A stretch of DNA of 64,000 bases from NCBI GenBank assembly GCA_965112635.1, contig OZ218778.1, positions 2,080,001-2,144,000 on the forward strand, in the 5' to 3' direction. The DNA is from an uncultured bacterium (GTDB taxonomy: Bacteria > Oederibacteriota > Oederibacteriia > Oederibacteriales > Oederibacteriaceae). Positions 56,685 through 64,000 of the stretch are shown piece by piece. Both the position numbers and the translations under genes were made by a program. Within the stretch, counting starts at the first letter, position 1, and each line of letters starts with the position of its first letter. The notes below the pieces were generated by a model. The model saw only the letters and a program-made list of their open reading frames with translations, was not told the DNA's origin and ran no database searches.

Positions 56685-57671
56685 ATGGTGGACGCTTTAA
56701 AAACCCTCAAAACCCCAAAAAAGGACACCCAGGGTATCTTTGGCCTGCTGGTCTGGATATTCGGCTGGGTATTCTTTGTTCATGTGATTTACCGCCTGTT
56801 TATCACCCCTGTAGACGGCTATCTGACCACCCACCAAAAATGGGTCCATGTCAGCCTGGGAAGTAACCCCTATTTCTTGACCGATCTGGGCCAGTCCTGC
56901 GTTCCCTTTGTTTTCTACATCATTTTCCTATTCCTCTATCTCTTCCTGCAGGAGGCCCGCTGCTGGGTGCTTTACCGGGCTCTTCAGGACGATCCAGCCA
57001 GGAGTGTAGGTCAGATGACCTCTTTTCGCGCCCTAAGGGCCTGGTTCTGCCTGTGGCTCGTTTGCCACGGGATCGCCTTTTTAGGCGTGTACCGCATCTA
57101 TACCCCGGACGATAACCGGGTCTTTTTTCTCAACCTGACGGCGTGGTTGTGTATGTTGGCATTCCTGGTCCAGTGGGCCAGCCAGAGCATCCTAAACCAT
57201 CTGCGGGAGGTCAGGGATAGCGTGGCCCCTCAGTCGCTCCAAAAGGTCAGGGAGTCTTTTGGCAGTCTGTTCAAAGATGTATGGTTCAGCGTGTGGGCGG
57301 ACTCCATGCTCAAGCCGGAGCCTAAATTCAAGGAGCTTGACCAGACAAGGGTCATAGATGCGGAGGCCGGGCCGGTCCAGGAAAAGCCCCAGCCTGAGCC
57401 AGCGCCTGATCATCCGGTCCAAAAGTCCGCCCCAAAACCTCAGCAGGGAAAAAGAGAGGCTCAGGGACAGGCGGCCAAACAGCAGATCATGGACTGGGCC
57501 ATTAAAAGGGATGATTGGTTTACCCCCAATGAGTTGGAGGAGGCTTTAGACATGAAAACCAGGACACGGGAACGCTATACCAGCAAGCTTGTCAGCGAGG
57601 GATCGTTGGAAAAAGACGGCACGGGACGCCGCAATAGCCGGTACCGGGCGAAAAGAGGTCCTTTAAAATGA
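56685..57671 (+). CDS. Four-TM membrane protein with C-terminal winged HTH
   Basis: Four hydrophobic segments, Pro/Gln linker, FTPNELEEALDMKTRTRERYTSKLVSEGSLEKDG. Confidence 0.75.
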   Translation: MVDALKTLKTPKKDTQGIFGLLVWIFGWVFFVHVIYRLFITPVDGYLTTHQKWVHVSLGSNPYFLTDLGQSCVPFVFYIIFLFLYLFLQEARCWVLYRALQDDPARSVGQMTSFRALRAWFCLWLVCHGIAFLGVYRIYTPDDNRVFFLNLTAWLCMLAFLVQWASQSILNHLREVRDSVAPQSLQKVRESFGSLFKDVWFSVWADSMLKPEPKFKELDQTRVIDAEAGPVQEKPQPEPAPDHPVQKSAPKPQQGKREAQGQAAKQQIMDWAIKRDDWFTPNELEEALDMKTRTRERYTSKLVSEGSLEKDGTGRRNSRYRAKRGPLK

Positions 57672-58714
57672 AAAGAACCTGGCTCCTCTGTTTCTGCCTA
57701 GTGCTTGGCCTGGCTGTCCTGGCCAAGTCCCAGGATACCGACACCCTGACCCTGGGGAAAGGGCAAGGCAAAACTTACACGGTGGGCGACCCTTCCGGCT
57801 GTTTCGTGGACAACACCAGCATCCTGTCCCTGCGGACCACCGGAGACGACCAGATCAAGGTCACGGCTTTGCAACCAGGCCGATGCACCCTGACCCTGCC
57901 GGGCAAGGCGGGAAGGAACAGGTACATCGGGGTGACGGTGATAAACGCCGTCCAAGATCAGCAAGGGACAAATACGGTCCCAAGTCCAAAGTCTTCGACC
58001 GTGGACATTGGACAGGGGACATTGGACAGGATCACTATCCAGAGCCAAAGGAATCATCGTTCTACCAGAACTAACAATAATGGCGGCGTCCGGGCCAGGG
58101 TAAAAGTGGCCGGGGTCGATCTCTCCACCAACCTGGGTCTGGCCTCTGCTCCCACGCCGGTTTCGACCCCTGTTCAGACCATGCTGAGATACCAGATCCA
58201 ACTGGCCCAGATCGACCTCGGCAAGGTGGAAAATGCCGGGATGCCTTTGGAGCAGACCGGAGTTTTTGAGCCAGCGGCGTTCAGGGGCCGGATGGACCTG
58301 CTCATCAGGGACGGCTATGCCAGACAGTTGGACAACCCGGCTCTGCTGGTGGAGAACAGCGACCCTGCCGGACCGGACAAGCCCAGCAGTGCGACGCTCC
58401 TCAATGGCTCCAAACTGACCCTGCAGGCAACGCTCCTCACTGGGAATAGGATCGAGAACAAGATAGACCTGGAATTGCTGGCCCCTGAGCAGTTCAGCGG
58501 GGAGGCCACGGCCTACAAGGGCAGCGTGGTCTGCAAGCTGGGGGAAACGGTCGTCCTGACCAGCCATATTTACACCCGGCACAGGCCCAATGTGTGGGGA
58601 GTGCCCTATATCTCCTGGCTAAGCTGGGACTTCGGCCACGATGAGAAAAGCTACATCCTCGTGTATCTGACCCCGGCCCTGGCCGCCTACACGCCCCCAA
58701 CCAAAAAACCCTAG
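57668..58714 (+). CDS. Reduced secretin-like protein (RcpA/CpaC-like)
   Basis: Signal peptide, Ig-like pilus-assembly N domain, degenerate secretin motifs in the correct order. Confidence 0.6.
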   Translation: MKRTWLLCFCLVLGLAVLAKSQDTDTLTLGKGQGKTYTVGDPSGCFVDNTSILSLRTTGDDQIKVTALQPGRCTLTLPGKAGRNRYIGVTVINAVQDQQGTNTVPSPKSSTVDIGQGTLDRITIQSQRNHRSTRTNNNGGVRARVKVAGVDLSTNLGLASAPTPVSTPVQTMLRYQIQLAQIDLGKVENAGMPLEQTGVFEPAAFRGRMDLLIRDGYARQLDNPALLVENSDPAGPDKPSSATLLNGSKLTLQATLLTGNRIENKIDLELLAPEQFSGEATAYKGSVVCKLGETVVLTSHIYTRHRPNVWGVPYISWLSWDFGHDEKSYILVYLTPALAAYTPPTKKP

Positions 58715-58730
58715 CCCCGCGCCTGCCTCT

Positions 58731-58766
58731 CCTTCGGCGTTTCGTCATTCGCCGTAACGCCGAAAT
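58731..58766. repeat. Intergenic element A, copy 1
   Basis: CCTTCGGC...TCGCCGTAACGCCGAAAT, repeated at 59881-59916. Confidence 0.8.
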
Positions 58767-58891
58767 GGGTTGAAGGACCTGAACATGCTCAAGCATGCGT
58801 GCTTTAGCACGTGGTCCTTCAACGGGTATATTCCATAAATACTTAAGAAGATGTACCCTGGAAAGAGGAAAATCAGGTTATTGTTTTGGTG
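58767..58891 (+). repeat. Intergenic structured element B, copy 1
   Basis: Near-identical to 59437-59533 apart from a 28-nt insertion and a few substitutions. Confidence 0.9.
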
Positions 58892-59436: not shown

Positions 59437-59533
59437 GGGTTGAAGTACCTGAATGGTACTTCAACGGGTATATTCCATAAATACTTAAGAAGATGTGCCC
59501 TGGAAAGAGGAAAATCAACATATTGTTTTAGTG
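59437..59533 (+). repeat. Intergenic structured element B, copy 2
   Basis: GTTGAAGTACC-TGAAT-GGTACTTCAAC followed by GGGTATATTCCATAAATACTTAAGAAGATGTGCCCTGGAAAGAGGAAAATCA. Confidence 0.9.
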
Positions 59534-59548
59534 GAATAGGAGGAAAGT

Positions 59549-59866
59549 ATGGCTCTAAAGGAAAGCAGTTTCCGATGTTCCAGGCTGTGCCACATTTTGG
59601 GAAATCCGGTGACATACAAAATACTGGAAGCCCTGCTGGATAAACCCCGCTACACACCCTCAGAGTTAGCCAAAAAAACCCATAGAACGGTCTCTACCAT
59701 TTCAGGGCATTTGAAAAACATGAGGCTTGCGGACCTGGTCCGTTTTGAAGCCAGAGGCAATCAAATGATGTACAGGATTAAATATAGGAAACAAGCCAGA
59801 GCCATCGTTGAAACACTTAAGAAATATGTGGCAGTTGCAGGCCGTTCTTCATCTTCCCAGCCCTAA
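59549..59866 (+). CDS. ArsR/SmtB-type winged HTH regulator
   Basis: LGNPVTYKILEAL, TPSELA...STISGHLKNMRLADLV; AGGAGG RBS. Confidence 0.88.
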   Translation: MALKESSFRCSRLCHILGNPVTYKILEALLDKPRYTPSELAKKTHRTVSTISGHLKNMRLADLVRFEARGNQMMYRIKYRKQARAIVETLKKYVAVAGRSSSSQP

Positions 59867-59880
59867 ACCTCATCCAATCC

Positions 59881-59916
59881 CCTTCGGCCATTCGGCGATC
59901 GCCGTAACGCCGAAAT
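59881..59916. repeat. Intergenic element A, copy 2
   Basis: CCTTCGGCCATTCGGCGATCGCCGTAACGCCGAAAT. Confidence 0.8.
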
Positions 59917-60002
59917 AGAAAAAATGCGGAATTGTTTGACAAGGGGAGGGTGGGAGAGCAAAATTAGGATATTGTAATTTGTAATAAGGAGGAGTGATTT
60001 TA

Positions 60003-61295
60003 ATGACACAGCTAGCCCTGTTATCACCAAATATAGGCCGAAGTGTTGATGCAACATCATCAACATTTTCAAATAATATGTCATTGCCAATACATAGATG
60101 GTTCCGCTATTCAGCAGGTTTCTCTGGAATTTGGGTTAGAGAAACTATTGAGTCTCGTAGGATAAAAAATTCAAATTTGCATGTTTATGACCCTTTTGCT
60201 GGTTCTGGTACTGTTCTAATAGAAAGTCAGTTATGTGGGGTTGATGGCCTTGGCCTTGAGCCACATCCATTTGTACATAAAATTGCTGAAGCAAAGCTTC
60301 TTTGGCGGCGTGACGCAGAGAGTCTATTTAAGTTAGGATTAGCTCTTGTATCTAAAGCACGTGGTGTTAAAGGAAGTCTCTCTGGTTATCCTGTTTTGAT
60401 TCGGAAATGTTTTACAGATGACGTATTACTGGAGTTAGATTGTCTTAAAATTGTTTGGGACAAGATGGCCTCCAAAAAGATTTCCGACGATTTAAAGGTG
60501 TTATGGCTTTTATTAACGTCAATATTGAGGGAGTGTTCGCATGCCGGAACGGCACAATGGCAATATGTTCTGCCTAACAAACAAAAAGCAAAGGTCGGAA
60601 AACCTTTTATAGTTTTTCAAAAGAAGCTCGAAATGTTTTGTGACGATATAATGGCTGCTAAAAGTTATGACAATGGTGGAAAAGCAATAGTTATTAAGGG
60701 GGATGCTAGAAATTGTTCAGGGATTCCGTCAAATTGGGCAAACTTGGTCATTACATCTCCTCCATATGCAAATAATTATGATTATGCAGATGCCACTAGA
60801 CTGGAACTTTGTTTTTGGAAGGAAATTTCGGGGTGGTCTGATTTACAGGAAACAATAAGAAAACATCTTTTGAGATCCTGCACGCAACATGTTTCAGGTA
60901 TTAGCAACGACATTGATTTATTACTTAGTGACCCGCTCCTTGAACCAATTCGATCTGAGATTAGGTCTGTTTGCCAACAGTTGGCTTTAGAACGTGTGAA
61001 TCATGGTGGTAAAAAACAATACCATGTTATGATTGCTGCTTATTTCAAGGATTTAGCGGCTTGTTGGAAAGAATTGCGCCGTATAACGACTAAGAATGCG
61101 GAAGTTTGTTTTGTAATTGGTGATTCGGCTCCTTATGGCATTTATGTTCCTGTTGATATATGGTTAGGAAAATTAGCATTGTCAGTTGGTTTTCGTTCCT
61201 TCAATTTTGAACAGACCAGAGTTAGAAATTTAAAATGGAAAAATAGAAAGCACCGTGTTCCTCTAAAAGAGGGACGTCTTTGGGTGAAAGGATAA
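60003..61295 (+). CDS. DNA methyltransferase, probably N4-cytosine (alpha motif order)
   Basis: HRWFRYSAGFS, DPFAGSGT (motif I) preceding ITSPPY (motif IV). Confidence 0.9.
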   Translation: MTQLALLSPNIGRSVDATSSTFSNNMSLPIHRWFRYSAGFSGIWVRETIESRRIKNSNLHVYDPFAGSGTVLIESQLCGVDGLGLEPHPFVHKIAEAKLLWRRDAESLFKLGLALVSKARGVKGSLSGYPVLIRKCFTDDVLLELDCLKIVWDKMASKKISDDLKVLWLLLTSILRECSHAGTAQWQYVLPNKQKAKVGKPFIVFQKKLEMFCDDIMAAKSYDNGGKAIVIKGDARNCSGIPSNWANLVITSPPYANNYDYADATRLELCFWKEISGWSDLQETIRKHLLRSCTQHVSGISNDIDLLLSDPLLEPIRSEIRSVCQQLALERVNHGGKKQYHVMIAAYFKDLAACWKELRRITTKNAEVCFVIGDSAPYGIYVPVDIWLGKLALSVGFRSFNFEQTRVRNLKWKNRKHRVPLKEGRLWVKG

Positions 61296-61297
61296 CT

Positions 61298-62176
61298 GTG
61301 GCTGTATCACCTTCTCATAAATTTGGTCAGATTATAGGCGACGTTCTTGAGGCTGCAATCGAACCATTTCTAACTGAATTTGCAAAAAATAATGGTCTAT
61401 TTTTGGATAAGAAAGGATCTAGGCCAGCAAGGTCTGGAAAGAAAGTGGCATGGAGGGACCTAAACGGAAACTTGCATGACTTGGATTTTGTATTAGAAAG
61501 AGGTGGTACAGGAGAGAAAATTGGAATTCCAGTGGCTTTTATTGAATCGGCCTGGCGTAGATATACAAAACATTCTAGAAACAAAGCCCAGGAAATCCAA
61601 GGTGCCATTATTCCATTATCAGCAACATATAGGGCATCAGCTCCATTTTTGGGAGCTATTCTAGCTGGTGAATTTACTGGTGGAGCACTGAAGCAACTCA
61701 AATCTCTTGGGTTTGTGGTGCTTTACTTCTCCTATCCGGCAGTTGTTAAAGCATTCAGGTCAATGGGACTAGATGCTTCTTTTGATGAAAATACACCAGA
61801 TAAGGATTTCTCCAAAAAGATACAAAAATGGAATAGCCTTTCTATTACTAATCAACGGAAAATTGCTAATAGCCTTGTTGCGAAAAATATTAAATCTGTA
61901 AAAACATTTCTTGCCAGTTTAGAAAGAACTGTGGATAGAAAAATATTGGAATTTAGTATTTTGCCTCTCCACGGGAGGGCTTTTAATTTTCCTTCCGCAG
62001 ATAAGGCAATTGATTTTCTTGTCAAATATGACACTAGTAAAAATTTAGCCTCTATTCATAGGATTGAGATTTCTATTAAATACAGCAATGGTAATATCTT
62101 TGAGGCAAAATTTATTAACACGGATGAGGCTATTGATTTTCTACAGACATATAAAGGGATTAGACTTTCAAACTAA
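61298..62176 (+). CDS. Putative type II restriction endonuclease
   Basis: Coupled to the MTase; DLDFVLE...AFIESAWRRYTKH PD-(D/E)xK-like core; AT-rich; GTG start inferred. Confidence 0.7.
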   Translation: MAVSPSHKFGQIIGDVLEAAIEPFLTEFAKNNGLFLDKKGSRPARSGKKVAWRDLNGNLHDLDFVLERGGTGEKIGIPVAFIESAWRRYTKHSRNKAQEIQGAIIPLSATYRASAPFLGAILAGEFTGGALKQLKSLGFVVLYFSYPAVVKAFRSMGLDASFDENTPDKDFSKKIQKWNSLSITNQRKIANSLVAKNIKSVKTFLASLERTVDRKILEFSILPLHGRAFNFPSADKAIDFLVKYDTSKNLASIHRIEISIKYSNGNIFEAKFINTDEAIDFLQTYKGIRLSN

Positions 62177-62437
62177 TTGGAAGAAATTTAGGTAAGGTTT
62201 TCATAAACAATATTTTCCCCGCCTCCCCCCGACCCATTTTCAGCTTTTCAGGCCTTGCCTTTAGACCCCCGAAATCCTCAAACAATCAATGTTTCCATTT
62301 TCGCATTTTTCTTTGTGCATTACTGCGTAAAGTATTGTTTTAGTGAGAAAAGAGGCAGTAGTAGGTAAGAAAACTAATAGGTAGAGACCTAGTTCTAATT
62401 CATATCTTTAGGAATAGTTAAAAAATATCTTTATGCA

Positions 62438-62466
62438 TTGACAATATCCATCTTTTACGCTACAAT
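62438..62466 (+). promoter_or_regulatory. Near-consensus sigma70 promoter of the small-HTH operon
   Basis: TTGACA-17 nt-TACAAT. Confidence 0.7.
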
Positions 62467-62563
62467 AATAAATAAGATTCGGATATTAGTAATAGTAGAA
62501 ACCTTTTAAATTAAAGGATTATTTGAACATTGTATTACCATCATATATTATTGCATAGGTAAA

Positions 62564-62803
62564 ATGAGGCTAAATGATATGAAAAATAAAGGCAATTTAA
62601 CATTGGAGTCAACAAACAAGCTTTTGATGGTATTGATAGCTCTTCTCTTAAGACGGAAAGAAGAAAATATTGCTACTCTTAGACAGCAGGTTAAAACTTT
62701 AAGCGATTTAGGTCTAAAGCCATTGGTGATAGCAGAAATATTAGGAAGATCAAGTAACTATATAAATAAGGAAATTTATAGTCTAAAAAAGGAGGAAAAA
62801 TAA
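62564..62803 (+). CDS. Small helix + HTH protein, type A
   Basis: LESTNKLLMVLIALLL...LSDLGLKPLVIAEILGRSSNYI; start may be 62579. Confidence 0.75.
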   Translation: MRLNDMKNKGNLTLESTNKLLMVLIALLLRRKEENIATLRQQVKTLSDLGLKPLVIAEILGRSSNYINKEIYSLKKEEK

Positions 62804-62806
62804 ATT

Positions 62807-62995
62807 ATGGGAAAGCAGAATCAAATTAAAGAGAAAGTAGTTGAAAATCTATTGCGCGATCTACTAATTGTGCAGCTTGGTCTTGCCGGTCTGACACAGC
62901 ATCAGATTAGAGAAATTGTGCAGGTTGATATACATCAAGTAAATCGAATTGTAAAACATTTGAGAGGAGGAAAAAATGAAAAGATCAAAATCTAA
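62807..62995 (+). CDS. Small helix + HTH protein, type B
   Basis: AGGAGG RBS; LLRDLLIVQLGLAGLTQHQIREIVQVDIHQVNRIV. Confidence 0.75.
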   Translation: MGKQNQIKEKVVENLLRDLLIVQLGLAGLTQHQIREIVQVDIHQVNRIVKHLRGGKNEKIKI

Positions 62996-63155
62996 AACAA
63001 TTGATCAGAAATTGGACGTTGTTGTTGATCTTTTACGCCATTTACTTGTGTTGGAGTTGCATAAGGAAGGTGTAATTCAGGACAATATTTGCAGACAACT
63101 TCATATAACAAAGCAAACAGTTGTCGATATGTTGAAGGGAGTTAAACATGAGTGA
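62976..63155 (+). CDS. Small helix + HTH protein, type B' (59 aa, absent from the ORF track)
   Basis: Translated by hand: MKRSKSKTIDQKLDVVVDLLRHLLVLELHKEGVIQDNICRQLHITKQTVVDMLKGVKHE; AGGAGG RBS; paralogous to 62807. Confidence 0.78.
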   Translation: MKRSKSKTIDQKLDVVVDLLRHLLVLELHKEGVIQDNICRQLHITKQTVVDMLKGVKHE

Positions 63156-63384
63156 AAAAATACTCGAAGATATATCTAATAAGCTGAACATATTAATTTC
63201 ACTATCAATAAAACAATTAAATGGGGATAAGGATTTTAGTAATAAATCAACGCGGAAACGGGGTGTTGGTGATTATGCAAGATACCTGGCTAATTATGGA
63301 ATTGATGCAAAAGAAATATCAAGGATACTTAATGCTCCTTTACAAAGCATAAGAACACTTTTAACACCAAAGCGGAGTAAATGA
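63148..63384 (+). CDS. Small helix + HTH protein, type A'
   Basis: LEDISNKLNILISL...LANYGIDAKEISRILNAPLQSI; paralogous to 62564. Confidence 0.75.
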   Translation: MSEKILEDISNKLNILISLSIKQLNGDKDFSNKSTRKRGVGDYARYLANYGIDAKEISRILNAPLQSIRTLLTPKRSK

Positions 63385-63385
63385 A

Positions 63386-64000
63386 ATGTCGCGGCCCCGT
63401 TTTCTCGATTTAAAAATAATGACAAAAATTGCAAATAAAATTAGAAAAAGTGTAAAAAGAGTTAATAGTTTGGTGAGTAAAAAGGCTAGTAAGTATAGAA
63501 TTTCCACAAAAGCAGCTTTGGCGCTGGTGGCGAAAGATTATAATGTCCCAACAACAGTTTACCAGAATAAATTGGAACCATCCGAGCGCGAAGAGTTTCG
63601 TAGTACTCTATTATTAGCAAATAACATAAATGATCATGGAAGTAAAAAGAAAAAAGTTGTCTCTCAATATCGGCAGAAGCAACAAAAATTCAAAATACTT
63701 GATGCTCCCGGATTATTATCAAAAGATTTGCAGTCGATCGATGGGTTTTTTGGTATAGCAGTTCTATTTATTGATCTCGACGATTTTAAATTTCTCAATT
63801 CAAATTTTACTGAGACTGTTGTTGATAAAGAGATACTGCCATCGGTGCATAATTTGCTAAAACGTTGCGTAAATTATTATGGGTATGCTTATGCAATGGG
63901 TGGAGATGAGTTTGCATATCTACTTCCAAATTGCACACAAAAAATGGCGATTGAATTTGCAAAAGCAGTTCGTAAGGAGATTGAAAGACTACAATTTTCT
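63386..64000 (+). CDS. Basic helical N-terminal domain fused to a divergent GGDEF domain (3' truncated; absent from the ORF track)
   Basis: Frame open for 205 codons to the window end; AVLFIDLDDFKFLN...AYAMGGDEFAYLLP; GGAG RBS. Confidence 0.85.
   Translation, partial: MSRPRFLDLKIMTKIANKIRKSVKRVNSLVSKKASKYRISTKAALALVAKDYNVPTTVYQNKLEPSEREEFRSTLLLANNINDHGSKKKKVVSQYRQKQQKFKILDAPGLLSKDLQSIDGFFGIAVLFIDLDDFKFLNSNFTETVVDKEILPSVHNLLKRCVNYYGYAYAMGGDEFAYLLPNCTQKMAIEFAKAVRKEIERLQFS

Follow-up and report, generated by a model that had tools for sequence, protein, structure and literature searches.

A candidate conflict cassette of small helix-turn-helix-type proteins with exchangeable payloads, found here with a diguanylate-cyclase-like C-terminal domain

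The DNA analysed here, called the window, is a 64-kb stretch of contig OZ218778.1 from an uncultured bacterium of the Oederibacteriota (host contig positions 2080001–2144000). Its right-hand end holds five tightly coupled genes, O1 to O5. O1–O4 encode small proteins with a possible helix-turn-helix (HTH), and O5 encodes a helical N-terminal domain (the N-domain) that a Lys-rich linker joins to a GGDEF domain. This operon is one copy of a widespread, so far unnamed cassette, in which three or four proteins of 55–80 aa precede the payload. The C-terminal payload of the cassette is exchangeable, as repeated changes of payload on the O4 tree show; most copies carry a HEPN-type domain, and the window copy carries GGDEF. 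The explanation favoured here, with modest confidence, is a laterally mobile conflict cassette that in this host ends in a diguanylate-cyclase-like payload. The initial annotation of this DNA, made from the sequence alone, had described four paralogous small HTH proteins coupled to a swappable nucleotide-cyclase effector.

Anatomy and distribution of the cassette

The five open reading frames (ORFs) and their spacing were reproduced exactly as first described, with a 3-nt gap between O1 and O2, overlaps of 20 nt between O2 and O3 and of 8 nt between O3 and O4, and a 1-nt gap between O4 and O5 (Table 1). A Shine-Dalgarno site precedes each of the five frames. Retrieval of the sequence past position 64000, which had been recommended, shows where O5 ends. 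The ATG at 62579, which gives O1 a length of 74 aa, is the likelier start of this gene, because GAGG lies 8 nt upstream of it, because it fits the family alignment and because it lies downstream of promoter P2, which is very near the alternative start at 62564. Database records from the 2.88-Mb contig include O1 (as 74 aa) and O3 only, which fits the earlier remark that two of the five ORFs were missing from the ORF track. With two of five genes missing from gene calls, such cassettes are probably under-counted.

A joint profile search with O1–O4 gave 662 candidates and 588 proteins at E ≤ 1; among the 120 listed, 61 are O1-like (about 74 aa, about 60% identical), 58 are O4-like (about 78 aa, 56–68% identical) and one is O3 itself. 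Gene order was read in a metagenomic locus set, the best 80 of 122 O4-family relatives, in which ORFs were taken by a longest-ORF rule that is noisy in GC-rich contigs. Matches to the window ORFs are found for O4 in all 80 loci, for O2 in 69, O1 in 68, O3 in 52 and residues 1–95 of O5 in 48; residues 96–262 of O5, the GGDEF part, have a match in none of the 80. The commonest order, O1-O2-O3-O4 followed by an N-domain protein, occurs in 22 of the 80 loci. The same order without O3 is found in 14, O1-O2-O3-O4 followed by another gene or the contig end in a further 14, and the remaining loci are minor variants. In 37 of 48 loci, and in the window too, a single nucleotide separates the O4 stop from the payload start; the gap is 2 nt in 7 loci and 4 nt in 4. 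Homologues of O1–O4 and of the N-domain of O5 co-occur in the same order on many unrelated contigs, in line with what the initial annotation had supposed. The source names of these relatives include Minisyncoccota/Minisyncoccia/Parcubacteria, Verrucomicrobiota/Verrucomicrobiae, Pseudomonadota and Burkholderiales.

The family hidden Markov models (HMMs) recover all four small proteins of the window (O1, 3e-34; O2, 7e-31; O3, 3e-26; O4, 2e-40), with one copy of each in the host genome. The operon in the window belongs to the cassette in full, the O1–O4 order, the leader, the 1-nt junction and the N-domain all being present, and it is a payload variant in that the majority HEPN-type C-terminal domain is not present in O5. 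An 818-bp contig in the databases encodes, in a single frame, a protein of 128 aa that reads as an O1-like part and then an O2-like part; the O1–O2 adjacency recurs there.

The small proteins had been read as four paralogues in the order A-B-B'-A'. The comparisons support two paralogous pairs in that order, O1/O4 and O2/O3. The alignment of O2 with O3 first put forward is significant already between the window sequences (Smith-Waterman score 53 versus 28.3 ± 5.6 in 2000 shuffles, p = 0.0005), and the two families match each other as well (hhalign 94.7%, E 5.7e-8). The proposed alignment of O1 with O4 fails on single sequences (p = 0.27 in shuffles; no BLASTP match) and holds with family profiles (hhalign 96.7%, E 4.3e-10). 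Because the O1 and O2 families are not demonstrably related (hhalign 9% only), the array is two pairs rather than four equivalent paralogues. A protein identical to O4 is also recorded on a separate 14,247-bp contig, which is probably the same population in another assembly and so not independent support.

An HTH had been assigned to each of the four. Weak matches to Pfam HTH_23, all under the curated cut-off, are found for O2 and O3 (E 0.003) and for O1 (E 0.075), and none is found for O4. An atlas search gave a further lead, a neighbouring cluster in which 31% of the members carry Sigma70_r4_2. Against the Protein Data Bank (PDB), the O1 family profile weakly matches the plasmid-maintenance antidote protein 3cec (E 0.017), and profiles of the N-domain, O1, O2 and two payload domains described below (type iii and the Ymh C-domain) have no match at E < 0.008. 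The match of the O4 profile to PDB 8vd6 'CAP REPEAT' (E 2.4e-10) was rejected as an artefact, being the sum of five weak matches (i-Evalues 12–21) to an idealised repeat; the only paper found with this code, PMC12339374, concerns de novo protein design. A complex prediction of O1, O2 and O4 with the N-domain scored 0.00 with control runs absent, and counts neither for nor against.

The leader upstream of O1 contains the near-consensus promoter noted earlier (P1) and a second one (P2) with an arm of an inverted repeat in its spacer. Promoter-like sites show no excess in the region overall (7 versus 9.1 ± 3.6 in shuffles). In a set of 46 distinct cassette leaders, 37 have at least one TTGAC[AT]-N16-18-TANNNT within 220 nt of O1. 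Among the matches listed, P1-like ones lie about 146–150 nt before O1 in roughly 24 of the 46 leaders and P2-like ones about 64–66 nt before O1 in roughly 20. Blocks that stay unchanged when 20 of the leaders are aligned are the TTGAC of P1, AATAA, GTA-T, the TAC of ATTACC in the P2 spacer, and TTATT in the P2 -10 box. The inverted repeat GGTAAT...ATTACC at 45–46 nt is exact in 17 of the 46 leaders, compared with a mean of 0.02 in 200 shuffles, and is found in 34 when each arm is allowed one mismatch; the window arms are 46 nt apart and have one mismatch. Changes in one arm are uncompensated by the partner arm (in the window, L099 and L067, the latter two being locus numbers), and Rfam finds nothing in the leader (a chance miRNA match, E 0.7, lies elsewhere). 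An RNA element in the leader was rejected on these two grounds, and the repeat is better read as paired DNA sites, a putative operator, than as an RNA stem.

Table 1. Positions in the window of the cassette features and of the adjacent genes of the island
Feature	Position	Strand	Evidence
Promoter P1, TTGACA-17-TACAAT	62438-62466	+	11/12 consensus
Operator-like arm 1, AGTAAT (family consensus GGTAAT)	62488-62493	.	inverted-repeat analysis
Promoter P2, TTGAAC-17-TATTAT, operator arm in spacer	62523-62551	+	9/12 consensus
Operator-like arm 2, ATTACC	62534-62539	.	inverted-repeat analysis
O1, family A, 79 aa	62564-62803, likelier start 62579	+	about 60% identical to 31 family members
O2, family B, 62 aa	62807-62995	+	52-72% identical to 40 family members; weak HTH_23
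O3, family B', 59 aa, O2 paralogue, optional in family	62976-63155	+	present in 52/80 loci
O4, family A', 78 aa, distant O1 paralogue	63148-63384	+	56-68% identical to 31 family members
O5, 262 aa	63386-64174, ending past the window	+	
O5 residues 1-85, cassette-specific five-helix N-domain	63386-63640	+	family HMM E 4e-32
O5 residues 94-262, GGDEF module	63665-64000, on to 64174	+	Pfam GGDEF 1.1e-19, 71.2 bits
ArsR-like winged-HTH gene, island head, context and not cassette	59549-59866	+	Pfam HTH_24 1.9e-8, HTH_5 3.1e-8
Type II DNA methyltransferase, context	59994-61295	+	PADLOC MTase_II E 1.6e-123; Pfam N6_N4_Mtase 3.6e-7
Type II restriction endonuclease, context	61280-62176	+	PADLOC REase_II E 7.1e-74

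The N-domain and its payloads

The N-domain aligns with 42 fifth-protein N-termini at 25–42% identity for all but two (22%) and has the motif MxRPRILDxKIMSKIAKK...ISAEAALIxLAKExGIGTSTYQRxLD. The AlphaFold2 (AF2) model built from the family alignment consists of five helices with a pLDDT of about 90 at residues 11–70; none of its 42 listed matches in the PDB reaches E ≤ 0.001, and the domain has no Pfam family. A relationship of the N-domain to O1 or O4 was rejected (hhalign 1.4% each). A word search at near lengths returned the query alone among 45 candidates, the ESM atlas gave no usable match with O5 residues 1–95, and tblastn against phage records gave none. Relatives of the domain surfaced solely via O4-anchored loci.

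The fifth ORF was classified by local HMMs in the 79 loci that have one, the 'unk' and 'other' rows including doubtful ORFs. The N-domain is joined to a Ymh-type C-domain in 37 loci, to a 'type iii' domain without assignment in 8, and to other, truncated or cut C-termini in 8, L102 and L104 among them; the fifth ORF has no N-domain in 26. The fifth gene of 10 of the 79 loci encodes a winged HTH (wHTH) with a Schlafen/AlbA_2 domain, without N-domain, and such genes start 25–180 nt after O4 except for one locus with 1 nt. Pfam finds in 10 representative payloads Hypoth_Ymh (8e-15, 1e-15), HEPN_Swt1 (3.6e-8, L104) and SLFN_AlbA_2 (5e-17, 9e-19), the last behind a winged HTH in two proteins. One further representative is an ArsR-like protein of 164 aa, and nothing was found for the type iii or truncated payloads. 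PADLOC models match the C-domains only, namely PDC-M34B (3.4e-31, L104) and PD-Lambda-3_B (about 2e-7, Ymh forms). The HEPN fusions that the initial annotation had mentioned are present; for TIR, mentioned with them, no fusion to the N-domain was seen, and TIR occurs only as a separate upstream neighbour of one cassette.

Poorly resolved and built from few columns, the O4 tree requires 26 changes of the payload label, against a minimum possible of 7 and a shuffled mean of 41. Well-supported O4 sister pairs carry different payloads (L069 versus L081; L091 versus L102/L104). The effector had been called swappable, and the N-domain is indeed found fused to Ymh HEPN, Swt1 HEPN, an unassigned domain and, here, GGDEF. 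The window O4 falls in an unresolved polytomy among mostly Ymh-bearing cassettes, so that replacement of a HEPN payload by GGDEF in the window lineage is no more than plausible. The only fusion of GGDEF with the N-domain among the 150 best GGDEF relatives is the window protein itself, which is also the only GGDEF carrier among 20 N-domain proteins found among longer proteins (8000 candidates scored; the list of fusion partners is incomplete). The GGDEF version of the cassette so far appears to be unique to the window.

The type iii domain is about 150 aa long (payload residues about 100–248), has conserved ...LYFDT... and ...NNKTHSWYH... and has no Pfam or PDB match; its assignment as a HEPN domain was rejected (hhalign 0.2% against the Ymh C-domain). 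It is found in L037, L038, L039, L058, L059, L060, L071 and L079, and five of these eight loci have an extra O2/O3-like gene between O4 and the payload. Short payloads of 139–156 aa (L045:2002-2472, L063:4922-5341, L066:997-1416) consist of the N-domain and a shared tail, ...LSWLTLNPNxYGIGFxIKKIK..., with no HEPN. Such payloads are copies in decay, or else the tail is a small C-terminal module of another kind.

The best reading of the O5 payload, from its sequence and its predicted fold, is a diguanylate-cyclase-like enzyme. The architecture of O5 given by the initial annotation, a helical domain, a Lys-rich linker and GGDEF, is upheld: the protein exceeds the cut-offs of PF00990 (71.2 versus 23.8 bits) and TIGR00254 (61.2 versus 37.4). 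The GGDEF motif is at residues 172–176, and O5 has the residues D130, D132, N138, D147, Y169 and G172-G173-D174 that are invariant among 80 subfamily members; the domain can be aligned to PA0861. In PleD, Asp and Asn residues of this kind contact the metal and guanine. The AF2 model of the GGDEF/palm domain has a pLDDT of about 97, and Foldseek finds 148 PDB matches at E ≤ 0.001, of which the top listed are all diguanylate cyclases (E to 3e-11). The closest solved structures are DgcZ, PleD, WspR, DosC and PA0861.

An exhaustive search with residues 94–262 gave 46 matches at E ≤ 1e-30, all aligning from about residue 90. The subfamily so defined is marked by the lead-in (R/x)KQQKFxILDxPxLL and a TExVVD motif, and its N-termini are diverse and nearly all unannotated; Pfam finds, in 80 members, GGDEF in all, a weak Cas10 palm2 in 25 (E ≤ 0.001), DUF2321 in 2 and TPR in 1. 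Its 24 loci in species genomes are about 18 of Myxococcota type, 2 of Elusimicrobia and 1 each of Scalindua, Acidobacteriaceae, Ruminiclostridium and Azospirillum, and no conserved neighbour was found in them. The subfamily resembles an output module that has been combined with many different front ends. It is mainly of Myxococcota and lacks a known sensor domain. The GC content of the GGDEF part of O5 (0.357) is close to that of the rest of the cassette (0.30–0.35), and because of this match the GGDEF part would not be a fresh graft from a GC-rich donor. The host genome has 11 GGDEF matches and 17 PilZ matches.

Readings of the cassette and related systems

The reading as a conflict module is drawn from the payload types and the neighbours. 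The neighbour count covers 132 immediate neighbours, up to two per side, leaves out the near-duplicate loci L039, L047, L049, L060, L087 and L105 and ORFs cut by contig ends, and stands without matched control loci. The commonest Pfam family is N6_N4_Mtase (9), followed by PIN (4) and by N6_Mtase, D12 MTase, Methylase_S, MutH, HNH and ResIII (2 each); PADLOC MTase_II models match 9 neighbours and mad2 12. Individual upstream neighbours include REase_II directly upstream (L067, L058), TIR (L086), a Cas4-like nuclease (L062) and a DinG helicase (L038), and 5 of 10 individually tested ones have no match. The window cassette itself lies directly after a Type II methyltransferase–restriction enzyme pair. 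Cassettes are usually AT-richer than their flanks. Of 99 species genomes from the host phylum, that of the host is the only one in which the O4 family is found, and the island DNA compared with 30 same-phylum genomes matches only in host genes at the start of the query.

In the proposed conflict module, which would serve either abortive-infection-type defence or addiction, the small HTH proteins would occupy the paired operator arms and repress the operon. O1–O4 or the N-domain would hold the payload inactive until a trigger allows payload pairing, the N-domain coupling the payload to this control. The hetero-oligomer, the DNA-sensing or antitoxin action and the gating that the initial annotation proposed are likewise putative. 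HEPN RNases and GGDEF cyclases are active as dimers only. Because both need pairing for activity, one N-domain could serve either of them. Activation of the window copy would convert GTP to cyclic di-GMP (c-di-GMP), which may enter the PilZ network of the host, since no dedicated receptor is linked to the cassette; the result would be a switch of lifestyle or growth rather than RNA cleavage. If this reading holds, a cassette common in environmental bacteria joins the candidate conflict systems with a defined anatomy, and four small-protein families and an 85-residue domain without models gain a context. The window copy would then be a natural experiment on induced payload pairing and on c-di-GMP as a defence-type output.

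Several observations weigh against this explanation. The HTH assignment consists of sub-threshold Pfam matches and one Sigma70_r4_2 atlas lead. With 26 of the 79 fifth genes lacking the N-domain, this domain is not needed to keep a fifth gene linked with the HTH array. As a singleton, the GGDEF fusion could have arisen by accident in the recent past. The GGDEF domain is itself divergent: it scores 71 bits compared with 95–172 for the other full-length copies of the host, it matches the Pfam profile only from position 33, and it has TE in place of the usual GH in front of the second Asp. An RxxD inhibitory site was not seen upstream of the GGDEF motif. No c-di-GMP receptor or effector gene and no PilZ match are found in the island. 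The neighbours of the cassette are rich in restriction-modification (RM) and other defence genes, but the link is partial: among the 50 loci with enough upstream DNA, 12 have a methyltransferase-like ORF with an xPPY motif within 2.6 kb upstream, the baseline for this crude motif being 16 of 245 neighbour ORFs of at least 150 aa and not independent. Housekeeping functions, among them URO-D, ferrochelatase and PPDK, account for many of the neighbours. Finally, searches of viral contigs, phage records and plasmids found no copy of the cassette, and for this reason the case for mobility is one of composition and patchy distribution, from which we infer that the cassette was laterally acquired.

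Among the alternatives, an addiction module of toxin–antitoxin (TA) type is the least unlikely. The HTH proteins would be labile antitoxins and autorepressors, the payload would be a stable toxin, and the unit would stabilise the island and its RM genes without sensing phage. Its tight translational coupling, the operator-like repeat over its own promoters and the HEPN and Schlafen payloads fit the type II TA layout; RM genes, which are frequently adjacent, are themselves addictive, and the weak match of the O1 profile to the antidote protein 3cec points in the same direction. However, three or four small proteins conserved at 55–70% identity in hosts of very different GC exceed the needs of a TA pair, GGDEF is no obvious toxin, and plasmid records yielded no copy. 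Somewhat more doubtful is a portable regulatory unit, in which the HTH array and leader are a travelling expression switch that has been domesticated here for ordinary lifestyle control by c-di-GMP. The wide use of c-di-GMP by the host, the normal cyclase fold of the payload and the constancy of leader and HTH genes under variable cargo, with no receptor or effector linked, are consistent with it. What speaks against such a unit is that the assignable cargo besides GGDEF is of conflict type (HEPN, HEPN_Swt1, Schlafen/AlbA_2), the rest being unassigned or HTH-only, that the N-domain and the fixed 1-nt junction suggest post-translational coupling rather than transcriptional control alone, and that the cassette sits in an AT-rich island with RM genes and in a single one of the 99 phylum genomes. 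About equally speculative is a new immune sensor, in which a DNA-bound hetero-oligomer of the two mini-HTH pairs on the paired GGTAAT/ATTACC sites would hold the payload through the N-domain until invading DNA or a phage protein released or paired it. If this were true, the sensor that elsewhere controls a suicide RNase would here control a second-messenger synthase. Detection of an invader would then be wired directly to the c-di-GMP network with its effects on biofilm, motility and dormancy, and this would be a non-lethal defence output of which no description is known.

A chimera without function, in which recombination has recently put GGDEF in the place of HEPN and the product has no selected role, is an improbable account of the window copy. 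The fusion is indeed a singleton both among the GGDEF relatives and among the N-domain proteins, and the truncated payloads in L045, L055, L063 and L066 indicate that cassettes do decay; yet all five frames are open with Shine-Dalgarno sites, the subfamily-invariant GGDEF residues are kept, the model is confident, the GC content of the GGDEF part matches the cassette, and an identical O4 exists on the second contig of 14,247 bp. Least credible of all is an ordinary housekeeping GGDEF operon with small regulators and no link to conflict. GGDEF genes are frequent, with about ten in the host, but O1–O4, the leader and the N-domain are parts of a cassette whose copies elsewhere carry HEPN or Schlafen, and GGDEF in none of the 80 loci, and the GGDEF relatives are never near O1–O4 (best E 0.044 in 24 loci). 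The conflict cassette with an exchangeable payload is retained as the preferred reading, and its place among known systems is that of a candidate new system, kin to defence-island effector modules under small HTH regulators.

The initial annotation had put the operon forward as a candidate new system, and no named system matches it in the collections searched: Pfam, NCBIfam and PADLOC have no model for O1–O4 or the N-domain. With PADLOC-DB v2.0.0, O1–O3 match no family, O4 has one chance-level match (E 0.037) and O5 has one (E 0.011). The literature search found no description of the cassette; the supplementary tables of PMC3710099 and PMC12330615, which might list such neighbourhoods, were outside its coverage. 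The majority payload belongs to Ymh (PF09509), a HEPN family of the Rx4-6H type that is reported to occur in operon with RM genes (Anantharaman et al. 2013, PMC3710099). The RM neighbourhood is shared with the cassette; however, the portion of that paper covered here gives pMORC, AbiJ-NTD1 and AbiTii as fusions and mentions no mini-HTH leader or N-domain, and the window copy has no HEPN domain. The components B of PDC-M34 and PD-Lambda-3 in PADLOC resemble only the C-terminal effector domain of the relatives, and O1–O5 of the window match no PADLOC model beyond chance. Prokaryotic Schlafens (pSlfn) are anti-phage effectors, with HTH fusions in 8.8% of them, according to the portion of PMC12330615 covered. 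The wHTH-Schlafen/AlbA_2 fifth genes of the 10 cassette loci resemble them; unlike the majority payloads, these genes lack the N-domain, and no upstream mini-HTH array is mentioned in the same portion of PMC12330615.

On the side of the cyclase, O5 shares the GGDEF motif, the fold and the sequence family with the diguanylate cyclases PleD, WspR, DgcZ and DosC, but differs from them in lacking a known sensor domain, in belonging to a distinct subfamily and in sitting in a conflict-type cassette. Cyclase-based defence signalling is exemplified by the Cas10 palm, mCpol/Panoptes and CBASS. A palm-domain cyclase in a defence-like locus is common to these systems and the window, and O5 has a weak likeness to Cas10 palm2 at 26.0 bits. 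This score in PF22335 is below the cut-off of 27, the PADLOC match of O5, at the E value given above, is to Cas10, and Cas10 is absent among the top structural matches listed for O5; an assignment as a Cas10 palm cyclase was not obtained. Unlike CBASS, Pycsar and Thoeris, O5, as the last gene of the island, has no linked gene for a nucleotide-sensing effector. Controller (C) proteins of RM systems and autorepressors of type II TA systems are small HTH proteins with an inverted repeat over their own promoter. The cassette resembles them in having small HTH-type proteins beside RM genes and an inverted repeat over the promoter, a likeness of layout only, and differs in that its three or four different proteins form two paralogous pairs and have a separate operon, the last gene of which encodes an effector.

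The island and its surroundings

The cassette operon forms the right end of an AT-rich island of about 5.4 kb, with a GC content of 0.32–0.42 compared with 0.50–0.58 in the flanks. The description of the operon as AT-rich and adjacent to an RM system was accurate: GC is 0.32–0.35 across 61500–64000 and 0.50–0.58 upstream of 58500, and the methyltransferase and restriction enzyme have strong matches in PADLOC (Table 1). Besides the cassette and these two genes, the island contains a 151-aa ORF and the ArsR-like winged-HTH gene. Downstream of O5 the GC content rises and host genes follow, two membrane proteins on the opposite strand and then priA, def and fmt. No tRNA was found within 40000–64000 to mark the island ends, and a repeat search found no direct repeats bracketing the entire island. 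The search of sequencing runs listed no RNA run with the locus and one DNA run holding 0.24 of the words.

The wHTH gene has a second copy, 89% identical, at host-genome positions 2495791–2496105 (minus strand), where it heads another defence-like operon with a 418-aa AAA+ ATPase, ORFs of 153 and 67 aa, an 801-aa DUF262/GmrSD-like protein and a 483-aa nuclease-like protein; the labels of the last four ORFs come from reading their sequences alone. Defence cassettes in this genome may have the wHTH as a common regulator. Two repeats in the left part of the island flank the 151-aa ORF and the wHTH gene: a hairpin-like 39-nt element (58728–58766 and 59878–59916, copies 85% identical) and an 80-nt element (58812–58891 and 59454–59533, copies 93% identical). 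Pieces of both match elsewhere in the host genome at 82–95% identity. The 23 nt at 62333–62355, upstream of P1, are 83% identical to 59521–59543, just before the wHTH start, and could be the remnant of a former wHTH-led unit at that spot. The island is bordered on the left by a 348-aa gene (57668–58714) with a weak match to a pilus N-terminal region and a paralogue, 80% identical, at host positions 2009197–2010759; part of the gene before it is repeated at 1452063–1452517 with 87% identity.

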